This document shows, in pieces, positions 59,175-64,000 of a stretch of 64,000 nt of DNA. Both the position numbers and the translations under genes were made by a program. The stretch is from Burkholderiales bacterium (GTDB taxonomy: Bacteria > Pseudomonadota > Gammaproteobacteria > Burkholderiales > JABEVD01), in the NCBI GenBank assembly GCA_019753155.1, contig JAIELG010000003.1, positions 1,524 to 65,523 of the forward strand, in the 5' to 3' direction. How positions within the stretch are numbered: the stretch's first letter is position 1; each line of letters begins with the position of its first letter. Under the pieces are notes generated by a model. That model had not been told where the DNA came from. It ran no database searches and saw only the letters and a program-made list of their open reading frames with translations.

Positions 59175-61370
59175 TTAGACCTGCGGCCCCAGGACGCGCA
59201 GCACTTCCTCCACGCTGGTGAGTCCCTGGTTAACCTTGACGAGCGCATCCTCGAGCAGGGATGACGTGCCTATCCTTTGCGCCACGCGAGTCAAATCCAG
59301 AATGCTCGCCCCCGACGCGATGAGATGCCGCATTTCCTCGTCCGGGGCAAGCACCTCGTATACGCCCAGCCTTCCCTTGTAACCGTTGCCGCCGCAATGC
59401 TGACATCCGCGCCCCGTGTAAGCTGTCACTTCCTTCTCGAGGAAGATCGGGCCCAGCCTGGGAAGCAAGGCGGATGCCACGGGGTCAGGCTCCCTGCATT
59501 CCGGGCAAATCTGCCTGACGAGGCGCTGGGCGATGATGCCCTCCAGGGCGGTCGCAACGACGAAAGGCTTCAATCCCAGGTCGAACAGCCTGGAAAGCGT
59601 CGCCACCGCCGAGTTGGTATGCAGGGTGGAGAACACCACATGGCCTGTCAGCGCCGCATGGAAAGCGACCTCCGCAGTTTCGAAATCCCGTATTTCTCCG
59701 AGCAGGATGACATCCGGATCCTGCCTCAATATCGAGCGCAGCACGACAGGAAATGTCAGCCCGATTTTTTCACGGATCAAAACCTGGCCCGCCATGTCCA
59801 TGTAATACTCGACAGGATCCTCGATCGTGACATAGTTCTTGGCAGGAGAGGCATTGTGCTGCAAAAGCGCGTAGAGCGTCGTCGTCTTCCCGCTTCCCGT
59901 CGGGCCGGTCGCCAGAATGATGCCCTGCGGCTTGTCGACGAAATTGAGCACTTTCGCAAGATCGGGCTGGGAAAACCGCAATCCTTCCAGGCTGTGGATT
60001 CTCGAATTGCGGTCCAGAATCCGCATCACCACCTTTTCGCCGTTGATGGTCGGAAGGGTCGATATCCTGAGATCGACGACGCGCATCGGCGTCCTGACCG
60101 TGATGCGCCCGTCCTGGGGCCTGCGCCTTTCGCTGATATCGAGTTCCGACATGATCTTGATCCTGGAAACGATGGACTGGAGCAGGGGCGGCGGGATATT
60201 GATCTTGTCCATCAGAACACCGTCTATGCGGTAGCGCACGACGACATTCTTTGTCCTGGGCTGGACATGGACATCGCTCGCGCCCAGCCTGATCGCTTCC
60301 AGTATGATCGCATTGACGAGCCTGATCGCCGGCGGCTCATCCCCGATCAGGAGTTCCTCGAGCGACTGGTCTTCGGTATCGTCGATGACGATCTCGATGC
60401 CTTCGTAAGGATCGATCCTGGACAACAGGGTTTCCAGATCCCTGAAGTCCATCACTTGGTCGGGACGGTAAACCTCGTTTATTTTCGCCTGGATCGAGAT
60501 GATATCGGACACCACTGTGTGGATGTTCAATCCGGAAACGAAACGCAGGTCGTCGATCAGCCCCAGATCGAGCGGATCGGCCACGGCGAGCGTGAAGCGC
60601 TTGCCTTCGAGCCTGAGCGGCACGACAAGCTGCCGCTCGCAAAAGCTCATCGGCACCAGGGACGCCACGGCGGGATCGACCTGATATTCGGCCAGGGAAA
60701 CTTCCTCTATCTGAAGCTCCCTGCGCAGGAGGTTCCTGATCTCGTTCTCGCCTATCCAGTTCTGCTCCAGGAGAACCTTGATGAGCGGTTCTTTTCTCGA
60801 AACCTGGAGCCTGTTCAATTCCTGAACCTGATCCATGGTGAGCAGATTGTGCTTGTTGAGCATGACGGCGAGCTGGCTCCTGTTCGTCACCATCAGCTTC
60901 GAAAGCGCGGCGATCTCGCCGCCCGCCTTCTTCGTCGTCTCGGGAAGGTCAGCCTTGCCTTTCTCGTATTGTTCTATCGAGAGGGCAACGATGGCGCGCA
61001 GATCCTCGTCCTTCCAGGGCTTGATGGCGAACCTGAACGCGATTCCCTCGCTGATCGCGCCCATCACGGCGCCGATGTCGCTTTGCACGGTGAGCAGAAC
61101 CCTGACCAGATCGGGTTGTATATCTTTCGCCTGCCTGAGGAGATCCATCCCGTTCATCCCAGGCATCTGGTAATCGGAAATCAGCACGTTGAAACGCGAG
61201 CGCTTCAACTGTTCGAGCGCATCCTCGGCCCTCGTGGCGGAGACGATCTGGTAATTGTCGTAGCGAAAAGTCTGGTGCAGGGCTTTCAGGACTACCGGAT
61301 CGTCATCCGTAATCAGGATGCGGTAGGGCGCTGCGGGAAACTTGTTCGGTGTCTGGGCTTTCCGTGGCAT
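59175..61370 (-). CDS. PilB/GspE-family secretion ATPase with an N-terminal response-regulator receiver domain
   Basis: REC: ILITDDDPVV...NVLISDYQMPGMNG...LLTVQSD...FAIKPW. A T2SSE_N-like region follows. The ATPase core has Walker A GPTGSGKTTT, DPDVILLGEIRD and the tetra-Cys CPEC...CQHC of PilB/GspE. Confidence 0.85.
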   Translation of the reverse strand: MPRKAQTPNKFPAAPYRILITDDDPVVLKALHQTFRYDNYQIVSATRAEDALEQLKRSRFNVLISDYQMPGMNGMDLLRQAKDIQPDLVRVLLTVQSDIGAVMGAISEGIAFRFAIKPWKDEDLRAIVALSIEQYEKGKADLPETTKKAGGEIAALSKLMVTNRSQLAVMLNKHNLLTMDQVQELNRLQVSRKEPLIKVLLEQNWIGENEIRNLLRRELQIEEVSLAEYQVDPAVASLVPMSFCERQLVVPLRLEGKRFTLAVADPLDLGLIDDLRFVSGLNIHTVVSDIISIQAKINEVYRPDQVMDFRDLETLLSRIDPYEGIEIVIDDTEDQSLEELLIGDEPPAIRLVNAIILEAIRLGASDVHVQPRTKNVVVRYRIDGVLMDKINIPPPLLQSIVSRIKIMSELDISERRRPQDGRITVRTPMRVVDLRISTLPTINGEKVVMRILDRNSRIHSLEGLRFSQPDLAKVLNFVDKPQGIILATGPTGSGKTTTLYALLQHNASPAKNYVTIEDPVEYYMDMAGQVLIREKIGLTFPVVLRSILRQDPDVILLGEIRDFETAEVAFHAALTGHVVFSTLHTNSAVATLSRLFDLGLKPFVVATALEGIIAQRLVRQICPECREPDPVASALLPRLGPIFLEKEVTAYTGRGCQHCGGNGYKGRLGVYEVLAPDEEMRHLIASGASILDLTRVAQRIGTSSLLEDALVKVNQGLTSVEEVLRVLGPQV

Positions 61371-61435
61371 TGCATTTCTTTTATCGGTCGATCCGATATT
61401 ATAATGGAAATACAGCCGCTCGCCTTAAGCTGAAA

Positions 61436-63079
61436 TTAAGAACGTCCCAAATCCTTCCATTTCTCGCAAGCCCTCGAATACCCCAGCCCGCAACTTTCCC
61501 TGAAGTCCGGCATCGCCCTGCCGTCGTTCAGATGCTGGTGGGCCAGGGCGCGAACGAAATAAGCCTGGGCATACGCGGGATTCAATTCGACAGTCCTGTC
61601 GAGATCGCGGATCGAAAGGTCGTACTTGCGGTCGTAGTAATAGGCAAAACCCCTGTTGTACCAGGCCTGGTAAATCTTCGGACTGATCGCGATCACCCTG
61701 TCGAAATCCCCTACGGCATCAGGATAATGCCCCGTTTGCAGGTTCGCAAGTCCGAGGTTGTAATAAATCCTGTCCACCCCGACGATGCCGCTCCTGCCTT
61801 CCACGAGCCTTGCCGCATCCCCCCACAAAAGAAGGGGGCTCGAAAATGTGACGAGCCTGTCCTTCGCCAGGGGGAAAAGCAGTATGGAAAGCCCCAGCAG
61901 AGCCGGGAAAGCGAATTTCGCCGGAATTCTGGAAAAGATCAGGGGCAACACGGCGAACATCCCGCCGATCCACAGGTAGCTCCGGTACAGGACGAACGAT
62001 TCCTGTATCCTGACCGTCGAGAGCTCGGTCGTGAAGAGCATCCATGGAAACAGCATGCCGAATCCGGCAAGCCCTACTCTCCCACCCTTGAGCAGAAGCC
62101 TGATTGCGATGACGGGATAGATCAGGAACGCGATAAAGCCGAACAACTGCGGCATGGCGAAATAACTCGATGCGAACGGCTCTCTCATGTCGACCGACAT
62201 GAGGGAAGGATTCGGAAAAATCCAGAGCAGAAGGTATTTGAAAAAAAGCAGGCATTGGGTCAATATGCTCATGGGATAGGCGTTCACGGCCTCGATCTTC
62301 TCCGACTCCACCATCGAAGCGCCGTAGATTTCGTAGGGCGCGCCCAGTACGCCTTTCGCCTTCATGACGACGAAAATGCCGATGACGGCAAAAAGCAGGA
62401 AAGGCAGCCAGAGCTGCTTCAGCCATTTCAGGGAAGGTTTCTGCAGCAGGAAGGTGAGTGCAAGCGCGACCGCCGGGAACATGACCGCATGCTCTTTCGA
62501 GAACACCGCAAGAAAATAGAACAGGGCCGAGAGGGGAAACCATGCGCTTTTCTTCCCTGCCACGCCTTCCATGTAGGCGAAGAGCATCAGGAAGCCAAAA
62601 AAAGTCGCCATGAGGGTGGTACGCTGAATGAGATAGCCTGCCGCATAAACGGACACCGGATCGAGCGCAAACACGATGGCGGCGAAAAAAGCGAGCCAGT
62701 CGCAGGAGATCCCGCTCGTCTCATCCTTCAAAACGATGATGAAAAGGCGCCTCAGGAAAAAAAACAGGACAAGAGCGGTGGCAAAATGCAGCAGCATGTT
62801 CCCCATCCTGAACCAGATCAGCAGGGGACCGAACAGCTTGTATGTCCATCCGAGAGAAGCATAGGCGAACCACCTCAAATCGAAATTGAACATCGATTCG
62901 CCGTATCGCTGAACAATCTTCCCGTCGAAAAAATTATAATCGTCGAAAACCAGCGGACTCCACAGGAACTTCCCGTACAGCGCGTCGACCGCGAGAAAAA
63001 GGAACAGGGCGAGGGCGAAAAAAGGCGTTTTTCCCTTGAGCGGGGCTTCGAGACTGAAAGAGGGTTTGCCGGATAACAT
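61436..63079 (-). CDS. polytopic GT-C-like membrane protein with C-terminal TPR repeats (TMTC/PMT_2-TPR architecture)
   Basis: 547 aa with about 10 or more TM segments. An acidic motif PLVFDDYNFF lies directly after TM1. The C-terminus carries about 3 TPRs (YYNLGLANLQTGHYPDAVGDFDRVIAISP..., AWYNRGFAYYYDRKYDLSIRDLDRTVELNP..., AYFVRALAHQHL...). Confidence 0.6.
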   Translation of the reverse strand: MLSGKPSFSLEAPLKGKTPFFALALFLFLAVDALYGKFLWSPLVFDDYNFFDGKIVQRYGESMFNFDLRWFAYASLGWTYKLFGPLLIWFRMGNMLLHFATALVLFFFLRRLFIIVLKDETSGISCDWLAFFAAIVFALDPVSVYAAGYLIQRTTLMATFFGFLMLFAYMEGVAGKKSAWFPLSALFYFLAVFSKEHAVMFPAVALALTFLLQKPSLKWLKQLWLPFLLFAVIGIFVVMKAKGVLGAPYEIYGASMVESEKIEAVNAYPMSILTQCLLFFKYLLLWIFPNPSLMSVDMREPFASSYFAMPQLFGFIAFLIYPVIAIRLLLKGGRVGLAGFGMLFPWMLFTTELSTVRIQESFVLYRSYLWIGGMFAVLPLIFSRIPAKFAFPALLGLSILLFPLAKDRLVTFSSPLLLWGDAARLVEGRSGIVGVDRIYYNLGLANLQTGHYPDAVGDFDRVIAISPKIYQAWYNRGFAYYYDRKYDLSIRDLDRTVELNPAYAQAYFVRALAHQHLNDGRAMPDFRESCGLGYSRACEKWKDLGRS

Positions 63080-63083
63080 TCGC

Positions 63084-63729: not shown

Positions 63730-63766
63730 GTCAATCTTTCAAAAATTCGACTTTCAGGATACAGCA

Positions 63767-63797
63767 AAGCCCGCCACCTTTACAGGGTGGCGGGCTT
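63767..63797 (-). terminator. stem-loop between the two pilin genes
   Basis: AAGCCCGCCACC-tttacag-GGTGGCGGGCTT, a 12-bp perfect stem. On the minus strand it is followed by TGCTGT (weak U-tract). Confidence 0.6.
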
Positions 63798-63821
63798 CGT
63801 CAAGCTACTGCTATACAATCA

Positions 63822-64000
63822 TCAGGTGCAACCGGGGAAGACTTTGATCATGTTGGCACTCCCTGTAGGCGTGCAAGTATTGCCCCACGAAACGGTCGTG
63901 GCATTGAGCGTCGGGGTCATTACCACGGTCGGCGCAGTGGTCGTTGTACCACCCACCGTAACCGGAACACCCAAAGTCAGCGTGAGGACACCATTTGCGG
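63822..64000 (-). CDS. second type IV pilin, C-terminal fragment (5' end outside the window)
   Basis: Minus-strand translation: ...NGVLTLTLGVPVTVGGTTTTAPTVVMTPTLNATTVSWGNTCTPTGSANMIKVFPGCT*. The Cys-x14-Cys C-terminal loop is typical of the pilin D-region. Stop at 63822-63824. Confidence 0.7.
   Translation of the reverse strand, partial: ANGVLTLTLGVPVTVGGTTTTAPTVVMTPTLNATTVSWGNTCTPTGSANMIKVFPGCT

Follow-up and report, generated by a model that had tools for sequence, protein, structure and literature searches.

In Pseudomonas aeruginosa group IV, the gene immediately downstream of pilA encodes TfpW, a membrane glycosyltransferase of the C type (GT-C) with ~11 membrane helices; periplasmic loop 1 carries a DDx motif, and a tetratricopeptide repeat (TPR) domain lies at the C-terminus in the periplasm. 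Loss of TfpW or mutation of the DDx motif abolishes pilin glycosylation (bioRxiv 10.1101/2020.04.19.049825). Homologues of TfpW are likewise encoded behind pilA in Kingella, Azotobacter, Acinetobacter and Teredinibacter (bioRxiv 10.1101/2020.04.19.049825). The combination of a pilin with a GT-C enzyme carrying a periplasmic TPR domain is therefore a published layout, pilA-tfpW (bioRxiv 10.1101/2020.04.19.049825; PMC11841053), and in pilin-accessory cassettes a terminator typically follows the pilin gene and damps expression of the accessory genes (PMC11841053). Here we describe a locus of similar layout at one end of a 64,000-nucleotide stretch of DNA, hereafter the window, from a Burkholderiales bacterium (assembly GCA_019753155.1, contig JAIELG010000003.1, positions 1,524 to 65,523). 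In this locus, two pilin genes are followed by the gene of a GT-C/TPR membrane protein and by the gene of a PilB-family extension ATPase fused to a receiver (REC) domain. In our assessment, it is probably a pilA-type major-pilin locus of a type IVa pilus equipped with a TfpW-like GT-C protein and a REC-PilB, the whole being an add-on to a shared pilus machine.

Genes were called from a map of the open reading frames (ORFs) between 56 and 64 kb, followed by Pfam and NCBIfam scans. The locus comprises the following features, given in the order in which the minus strand is read:

63822-64000, minus strand: 3' part of pilin gene 1, which runs past the window end
63767-63797, minus strand: hairpin between the pilin genes, from RNA folding
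63280-63729, minus strand: pilin gene 2, 149 aa, recognised by Pfam Pilin and N_methyl
63084-63275, minus strand: 63-aa ORF with short matches to an antitoxin and a PIN-type toxin
61436-63079, minus strand: GT-C/TPR membrane protein, 547 aa, from Pfam TPR, AlphaFold2 (AF2) and Foldseek
61371-61435, minus strand: 65-bp spacer with TATAAT at 61398-61403 and an ATCGG-N5-CCGAT palindrome at 61383-61397
59175-61370, minus strand: REC-MshEN-T2SSE ATPase, 731 aa, from Pfam and NCBIfam
58633-59160, plus strand: convergent PEBP/YbhB-family gene (Pfam PBP, 8.8e-42), the cluster boundary, outside the module

A sequence-only reading of this DNA had listed the same genes on the minus strand, from a partial pilin, a hairpin and a Cys-free pilin through a GT-C/TPR protein to a REC-fused extension ATPase, and had let the module end at a convergent gene. 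Each of these observations was confirmed by the analyses described below. Beyond the convergent gene lies dnaE, according to the ORF map and Pfam.

The pilin and GT-C/TPR gene pair

The 547-aa protein consists of a polytopic membrane domain (residues ~1-412) and a TPR domain (~435-546), with a conserved Cys pair at the C-terminus. Pfam recognised TPR_1/TPR_2 and related models only, at residues 437-518, and the membrane domain was left without a match in Pfam and NCBIfam. AF2 modelling of the full-length protein yielded a pLDDT of 86.4 and a pTM of 0.85. As TPR proteins dominated the PDB profile search as well as the full-length fold search, residues 1-430 were modelled alone (pTM 0.87). With this membrane-only model, the top 20 Foldseek matches in the PDB were all GT-C enzymes, including PglB, STT3, EmbA/EmbB, AftD, Pmt4 and ArnT (probability 0.99-1.00, TMq 0.35-0.51). 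The predicted structure thus supports a GT-C fold for the membrane domain and, together with the TPRs at the C-terminus, the GT-C/TPR label given by the earlier reading. The first membrane helix spans residues 20-38 and F45-D46-D47 follows directly after it; P42, F45, D46 and D47 are invariant in an alignment of 24 family members reaching down to 42% identity. A second invariant block in these members reads R357-I-Q-E-x-F-V-L-Y-R-S-Y-x-W370. Hydropathy provided an ambiguous count of 11-13 membrane helices, and the C-terminal Cys pair along with the analogy to TfpW suggests that the TPR domain is periplasmic.

Compared by published description, the 547-aa protein resembles TfpW in its GT-C domain, the DD pair in loop 1, the C-terminal TPRs and the pilin encoded directly upstream. 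Unlike TfpW, which is a pilin D-arabinofuranosyl (D-Araf) transferase of 646 aa, it measures 547 aa, and the likeness, as judged by description, is one of architecture and position. In TfpW, a late periplasmic loop carries the proline-rich motif YX6PFX7P, and a partial version of this motif is found here at M294-X6-P301-F302-X7-P310, with M294 invariant and F302 nearly invariant among the 24 aligned members. The eukaryotic TMTC1-4 and PMT O-mannosyltransferases also have a GT-C domain followed by TPRs and an acidic DD/DE in the first luminal loop, and Pmt4 and Pmt1-Pmt2 were among the fold matches. The protein was previously called TMTC-like, which is correct for the architecture only, because neither Pfam PMT_2 nor TMTC DUF1736 matched it at E <= 0.01; membership in the TMTC/PMT families (GT105/GT39) was accordingly dropped. 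A precomputed PF13231 match exists in one distant homologue only (P0102). In Synechococcus elongatus, the TPR-containing glycosyltransferase Ogt is encoded beside pilin genes and is required for pilin glycosylation (PMC9306852). Unlike the 547-aa protein, Ogt is a soluble GT41 enzyme (GT-B) with N-terminal TPRs that uses a nucleotide sugar, and it was discarded as a family match since GT41 is not a membrane GT-C family.

The pilin genes were assessed with the help of related contigs, which carry L numbers below. The exact GT-C protein and ATPase of the window are present on a single 6-kb contig only, as revealed by contig look-up. Contig L002, reached via a GT-C protein of 99% identity, matches the window DNA at 98.2% identity over 12.6 kb and stays collinear with it up to base 64000. 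The pilin 1 fragment shares 95% identity with residues 99-156 of the 156-aa L002 pilin (tblastn), of which it is the C-terminus; the full pilin 1 of L002 is Thr-rich and has a C-terminal Cys pair. Pilin 2 starts with the type IVa prepilin leader MQKG/FTLLE and scores 3.4e-14 with Pfam Pilin and 1e-8 with N_methyl. It contains zero cysteine and 22% Ser+Thr, a composition that makes it a candidate glycosylation substrate. In relatives, e.g. L091, Cys-free pilins are again encoded directly upstream of the GT-C gene.

A sigma-54 promoter, TGGCACGCTCATTGCT, is located ~60 nt before the start codon of pilin 1 in L002 (about 3168-3183) and matches TGGCACG-N4-TTGCT exactly. Such a sigma-54 promoter is typical for pilA genes controlled by PilS/PilR and RpoN. 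A putative second sigma-54 site upstream of pilin 2 was rejected: its spacing is off by 2 as counted by eye, and it coincides with the 3' arm of the hairpin. This hairpin has a GC-rich 12-bp stem, a 7-nt loop and a weak U-tract. The 86-nt region around it folds with -32.8 kcal/mol (z = -4.78), a stability that was reached by 0/200 shuffles, and positions 63767-63797 scored as terminator-like in a promoter/terminator scan. By analogy with other pilin-accessory cassettes, the hairpin is probably a partial terminator or attenuator.

Taken together, a Ser/Thr-rich pilin as potential acceptor and a hairpin behind a pilin gene are features that the locus has in common with the group IV cassette pilA-tfpW(-tfpX). 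In contrast to that cassette, neither a tfpX-like gene nor the D-Araf genes (DprE1/DprE2) were found near the window cassette. Moreover, there are two tandem pilins here, one of them without a disulfide loop, and sensor-fused PilB paralogues flank the pair.

The GT-C family is large, with at least 1,710 clusters at E <= 1e-5 among 8,000 candidates scored, and its source annotations read 'tetratricopeptide repeat protein' and, in one case, 'protein O-mannosyl-transferase'. Besides Methylobacter and the iron-oxidising Gallionellaceae, its hosts include other Beta- and Gammaproteobacteria from the environment. When species-representative genomes were scanned with the alignment of the family, at least 584 GT-C loci emerged, 80 of which were fetched and screened by tblastn and for the class-III signal-peptide pattern; the denominators given here are the loci with enough flank. 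A pilin-like ORF on the same strand was present within 2.6 kb upstream of the GT-C gene at 49/73 loci (67%), and this adjacency spans Beta- and Gammaproteobacteria. A GAF-HD gene and a GAF-ATPase gene were each found upstream at 16/56 loci, in 14 cases together; these loci belong to Gallionellaceae, Sideroxydans, Ferrigenium and other Nitrosomonadales. A PilB-like gene of any type came directly after the GT-C gene at 6/60 loci, and the REC-ATPase occupied a downstream position at 4/60, namely in the closest relatives L011-L014. In L040, the order is pilA, GT-C gene, pilB, pilC and pilD, as identified with Pfam and NCBIfam. L080 has the same gene set, but with pilB, pilC and pilD on the strand opposite to the GT-C gene. 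The pilin-linked loci and the pilBCD clusters of L040 and L080 show that a pilin together with its putative modifier is a known kind of cassette. In the sister species L005, L015 and L016, whose GT-C proteins are 62-64% identical, the order is pilin, GT-C gene, PBP and dnaE, with no ATPase gene between; thus, pilin and GT-C gene are the conserved unit, to which ATPase genes are added variably. In several genomes of Gallionellaceae and Herminiimonas, two GT-C/TPR copies lie within a few kb of each other. Tandem or multiple paralogues were seen at L049, L054, L057, L073, L085 and L088, and in L085 each copy has a pilin of its own.

The receiver-fused ATPase and the absent pilus machinery

Pfam divides the 731-aa ATPase into Response_reg (18-128, 4e-21), MshEN (220-304) and T2SSE (344-725), corresponding to a receiver, a degenerate MshEN/N1D from ~166 and N2D plus ATPase at 344-725. 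Residues 164-726 match the PilB structure 5tsg in the PDB with E = 5e-131, and the protein possesses a Walker A motif (GPTGSGKT at 489) as well as a Zn site (CPEC/CQHC). Tetracysteine Zn sites are typical of extension ATPases. In its N1D(MshEN)-N2D-CTD order, Walker A motif and tetracysteine site, the protein equals PilB (TIGR02538; Geobacter metallireducens, 5tsg). Unlike PilB, it has ~160 extra N-terminal residues, which form the receiver, and no pilC-pilD genes behind it. The receiver is nearest to RpfG-type (REC-HD) receivers. Its pocket residues D22, D23, D66, T94 and K117 are all kept, which renders phosphorylation plausible.

Binding of cyclic di-GMP (c-di-GMP) by MshEN domains relies on two 24-mers of the form RLGxxL(V/I)xxG(I/F)(L/V)xxxxLxxxLxxQ with a 5-residue spacing (PMC7288161). 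In its best register (166-218), the window ATPase agrees at 10/22 key positions, and each half is missing its Arg and both of its Gly; hence, direct c-di-GMP binding is unlikely, and because the motif is degenerate, the direct input is likely to be phosphorylation and not c-di-GMP. Signal input on the extension motor as such is known from PilG/PilH, cyanobacterial PATAN regulators, FimX-PilZ and MshE/MshEN. In contrast to these regulators of PilB, the receiver is covalently fused to the window ATPase, which would make a response regulator of the motor. Wang et al. 2016 have already catalogued MshEN domains in association with REC (PMC5013675). A 2024 review on PilB, which describes its gating as poorly understood, mentions neither receiver nor GAF fusions (PMC11656802), and our search of the literature on the regulation of PilB and on its fusions turned up no experimental work on a REC-PilB protein.

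The top 120 homologues of the REC-ATPase (65-99% identity) all have the REC-MshEN-T2SSE architecture and derive from Sulfuricella, Sulfuriferula, Gallionella, Methylotenera and other hosts. A metagenome scan with the protein returned mostly unrelated receivers, owing to the generic search peptide DYQMPGMN, and was useful for L091-L096 only. Wherever the ATPase is at least 76% identical (L002, L011-L014, L091, L092, L171, L172), the order is always GT-C gene, REC-ATPase gene, PBP and dnaE. Orthologues of 62-69% identity (complete genomes of Sulfuricella denitrificans and Sulfuriferula AH1; contigs L094 and L096) are preceded by genes for an Arf-like GTPase and a histidine kinase. A set of histidine kinase, REC-HD-GYP and REC genes is also found near them, and the kinase has T2SS_HK (NF038348) as its best NCBIfam match, at 261 bits against a cut-off of 450. 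The Arf/Ras-like GTPase (~217 aa) and REC-HD-GYP(HDOD) genes were located in L008 (8080-12244, Sulfuricella denitrificans skB26), L010, L094 and L096. This set of GTPase, kinase and REC-PilB has the look of a conserved signalling module, as yet unstudied, with a pilus-type ATPase as its target. In L094, all tblastn matches in 442-10178 recur in 8334-18070 at a 7,892-bp offset, comprising kinase, REC-HD-GYP, REC, GTPase, kinase and REC-PilB, which reflects either a tandem duplication or an assembly artefact. The window contains no homologue of the orthologues' GTPase or kinase.

PilC, PilD and a secretin had been reported as missing from the locus, and this proved true for the window and for its extension. 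Using Pfam-verified PilC and PilD as queries, tblastn (E <= 1e-3) produced no match in the 64-kb window, Pfam scans of ~45 window ORFs revealed no PilC, PilD, PilMNOPQ, secretin or other pilus machinery, and no pilC, pilD, pilMNOPQ or secretin gene is present in the 3.5 kb beyond the window, as represented by L002. In place of a pilBCD or pilMNOPQ arrangement beyond base 64000, L002 shows the rest of pilin 1, a gene for a 551-aa protein with GAF and HD_5 domains and a second ATPase gene of the PilB/GspE family. From this ATPase the C-terminal 454 residues are present; in relatives, it is a GAF-MshEN-T2SSE protein of 789-796 aa. A 'PilT-like' gene in L002 was discarded, as its parts of 370 aa and 84 aa form a single frame that is the C-terminal part of this ATPase. 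The upstream block is conserved in the clade of the window (L011 2977-9297; L171 1-5609; L002 3-3013) and encodes a PP2C phosphatase, an FHA protein, a metallo-beta-lactamase (MBL)-fold protein resembling class-II cyclic-nucleotide (cNMP) phosphodiesterases, the GAF-MshEN-T2SSE ATPase (~790 aa) and the GAF-HD_5 protein.

Type IVa pili usually have PilC, PilD and the secretin encoded away from the pilin locus. In all type IV filament systems, prepilins require a prepilin peptidase and the PilB-type ATPase requires a platform protein. With pilC, pilD and secretin genes missing at the locus, this machinery would therefore have to be encoded elsewhere.

Putative remnant, spacer and other contents of the window

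The 63-aa ORF between pilin 2 and the GT-C gene had been regarded as the scar of a toxin-antitoxin pair. It matches no Pfam or NCBIfam family. In a sensitive tblastn search, it aligned with residues 3-23 of an antitoxin (52% over 21 aa, E = 0.001) and with residues 100-128 of a PIN-type toxin (28% over 29 aa, E = 0.09), and the two matches lie contiguously along the ORF. At the same site, the relatives L014 and L091 contain an intact antitoxin (82-87 aa) and an intact PIN-type toxin (128 aa). Both matches are short; BLASTP with the whole ORF retrieved neither the intact toxin nor the intact antitoxin, and nucleotide alignment was equally negative. It is thus plausible, with weak but consistent support, that the ORF is a fused in-frame deletion remnant of a VapBC-type pair. 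The gap between pilin and GT-C gene is an insertion hot spot in L014 (2179-3818) and L091 (5502-6148), and in L014 it additionally contains a 281-aa transposase-like gene.

The TATAAT and the palindrome in the 65-bp spacer are present as first noticed, but neither is conserved. In an intergenic alignment of seven contigs, TATAAT occurs in the window and L002 only, TATAGT replaces it in 4/5 more distant contigs and the element is missing in L014. Two substitutions break the palindrome even in the 98%-identical L002, and it is unconserved across L002, L011-L014 and L091. This alignment rules out both as conserved regulatory elements and disposes of the regulatory role suggested for the palindrome, which we treat as a chance occurrence. 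A consensus promoter scan detected no -35/-10 pair and no sigma-70-type promoter on the minus strand, and an internal promoter in the spacer is possible but unsupported by the sequence.

Pfam assignments for ~45 ORFs across the window include a polysaccharide cluster, comEC, efflux and Mla transporters, dnaB, gltX, hslUV and others. The large polysaccharide-biosynthesis cluster (24-21655) lies 40-60 kb from the pilin cassette and encodes glycosyltransferases of GT2, GT4 and WbsX type, a Wzx-like flippase, an epimerase, an AsnB-like amidotransferase, a pyridoxal-phosphate (PLP) decarboxylase, a polysaccharide deacetylase and an acyltransferase_3 protein. It is a possible supplier of lipid-linked sugars. 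Genes for a LonB-like protease and a 934-aa all-TPR protein, PEP-CTERM/PrsT-type in look, follow after it. Three long ORFs had no Pfam match (E <= 1e-3 to 1e-5): 5105-7468 (minus, 787 aa) and 8548-9699 (minus, 383 aa) within the cluster, and 22703-24118 (plus, 471 aa) shortly past it. A gene for the ComEC/Rec2 competence channel is present at 25838-28156 on the minus strand (Competence, DUF4131 and Lactamase_B), and given this gene, the type IV pili may serve DNA uptake in this organism. Genes related to c-di-GMP are found at 44590-47641; they encode an HDOD/HD protein, a PAS-GGDEF diguanylate cyclase and a hemerythrin-domain protein.

Competing readings and significance of the locus

As the probable explanation, we favour, for this uncultured betaproteobacterium, a type IVa major-pilin locus whose TfpW-like GT-C protein and REC-PilB would supplement a pilus machine encoded elsewhere. 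On this basis, the sigma-54 (RpoN-dependent) promoter beyond the window would drive pilin 1, and the hairpin would lower read-through into pilin 2 and the accessory genes. At the periplasmic face, the GT-C membrane domain would accept a sugar linked to polyprenyl phosphate, with D46/D47 of the FDD loop as the presumed catalytic or metal-binding acids. A periplasmic TPR domain could hold the membrane-anchored pilin before assembly, such that Ser/Thr residues of one or both pilins become O-glycosylated. The REC-ATPase might then act as an alternative extension motor on a shared PilC/PilM platform to polymerise the pilin. Phosphorylation of D66 by a kinase encoded elsewhere may switch its hexamerisation or its docking to PilC/PilM, and the upstream GAF-ATPase and GAF-HD protein may add a ligand or second-messenger input. 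PilC, PilD, PilMNOPQ and PilT would all be provided from elsewhere in the genome, which is why the module is considered an add-on and not a self-contained system.

Several findings weigh against this explanation. No upstream pilin was found at 24/73 GT-C loci; thus, the GT-C family is not exclusively pilin-linked and has diversified past a single pilin partner. The TfpW motif YX6PFX7P is matched in part, with Met in place of Tyr, and no genes for sugar-donor synthesis adjoin the cassette. On the PilB equivalog TIGR02538, the REC-ATPase scored 547.6 bits against a cut-off of 675.65, as compared to 864.4 bits for the canonical PilB of L040 and 479 bits for the GAF-ATPase, which identifies REC-ATPase and GAF-ATPase as divergent PilB paralogues. 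The REC-ATPase orthologues of 62-69% identity have no pilin or GT-C gene within 10 kb, and the link of the REC-ATPase to the pilus therefore rests on the gene order of one clade. Finally, the 64-kb window encodes no histidine kinase detectable by tblastn or by Pfam in its ~45 ORFs.

The sequence-only reading had proposed that pilins, GT-C/TPR protein and REC-PilB constitute an undescribed, self-contained and signal-gated system, which would work without PilC, PilD and a secretin. The genes are indeed tightly packed and co-directional, 64 kb of the window and 3.5 kb beyond it are devoid of pilC, pilD and secretin genes, and the arrangement is kept in the clade with ATPases of at least 76% identity. 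However, a prepilin peptidase and a platform protein are needed by all type IV filaments and none is encoded here, which sets the locus apart from self-contained type IVa, MSHA, Tad and Com systems, and nothing indicates independence from the core machinery. Likewise, the triad is absent at 56/60 GT-C loci and at the REC-ATPase orthologue loci of Sulfuricella, Sulfuriferula and two metagenome contigs. Co-occurrence of the three genes had been expected in other genomes; it is confined to one narrow clade, that is to 4/60 genome loci and to near-identical or close metagenome contigs, a result that largely refutes the reading by the test named along with it. L005, L015 and L016 combine pilin, GT-C gene, PBP and dnaE without the ATPase, and the pilin-GT-C pair also resides within ordinary pilA-pilBCD clusters. 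Self-containment is thus highly improbable. The pair of pilin and GT-C/TPR protein corresponds to the published pilA-tfpW layout and the GT-C family is represented in pilA-X-pilBCD clusters (L040, L080), which likewise contradicts an undescribed system. In sum, what the earlier reading observed is confirmed and its interpretation is partly supported: the components were recognised correctly, but they do not amount to an undescribed system that is sufficient by itself.

It is also conceivable, albeit unlikely, that the REC-ATPase is unrelated to the adjacent pilins and represents a two-component output that was moved here by rearrangement in one lineage, in which case a pathway of small GTPase, kinase and REC-ATPase would serve another process or filament. 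This would account for the 62-69% orthologues beside an Arf-like GTPase and a histidine kinase without pilin or GT-C gene, for the resemblance of their kinase to T2SS_HK, albeit below the cut-off, and for the absence of the ATPase gene from this site in the sister species; the 65-bp gap with its -10-like TATAAT/TATAGT would permit separate transcription. On the other hand, all features of an extension ATPase are kept, including the platform-docking N1D, and the position behind the GT-C gene is stable over 76-99% identity. No other filament genes were found beside the REC-ATPase anywhere, leaving the pilus machine as its only plausible client. A role of the GT-C/TPR protein apart from pilin glycosylation, either on another envelope acceptor (polysaccharide, lipid or protein) or as a non-catalytic pilin chaperone, appears quite improbable to us. 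The pilin-less loci, the tandem or multiple paralogues in several genomes, the membrane domain without Pfam or NCBIfam match and the lack of adjacent donor-synthesis genes, with a large polysaccharide cluster elsewhere in the window, would fit such a role. They are countered by the pilin adjacency on the same strand at 67% of the loci across Beta- and Gammaproteobacteria, by the invariance of the catalytic-type FDD, by the Ser/Thr-rich neighbouring pilins and by an architecture identical to that of TfpW, whose loss or DDx mutation ends pilin glycosylation.

Returning to the reading as an add-on to a shared type IVa pilus machine, a bolder extension of it is that the pilin-GT-C cassette forms the core of a conserved but unstudied sensory pilus island, where one machine is shared by two motors that differ in their gating. 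In such an island, GAF-PilB and an HD-GYP-type GAF-HD protein would be located upstream, often after PP2C, FHA and cyclic-nucleotide-phosphodiesterase-like genes, with REC-PilB downstream in this lineage. We regard this idea as speculative and rather doubtful. If true, motors gated by a ligand or second messenger and by phosphorylation, respectively, would compete and, as signal receivers, time the assembly of glycosylated pilin.

None of the findings constitutes a new class of machine. The pilin and GT-C/TPR pair described here adds a new branch to a type of cassette that is already known. PilB regulation is known as such, too, and its form at this pilin locus, where a receiver and, next door, a GAF domain are fused directly to PilB paralogues, is a variant so far uncharacterised. 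Our analysis points to a large pilin-linked family of TfpW-like GT-C proteins, whose annotation would be improved by a dedicated family model. In Pseudomonas, cassette-encoded pilin glycosylation alters pilus function and blocks pilus-specific phages. The REC- and GAF-PilB fusions, in turn, would place signal reception on the motor itself, and substitutions of D66 would offer a simple genetic handle on the gating of PilB.

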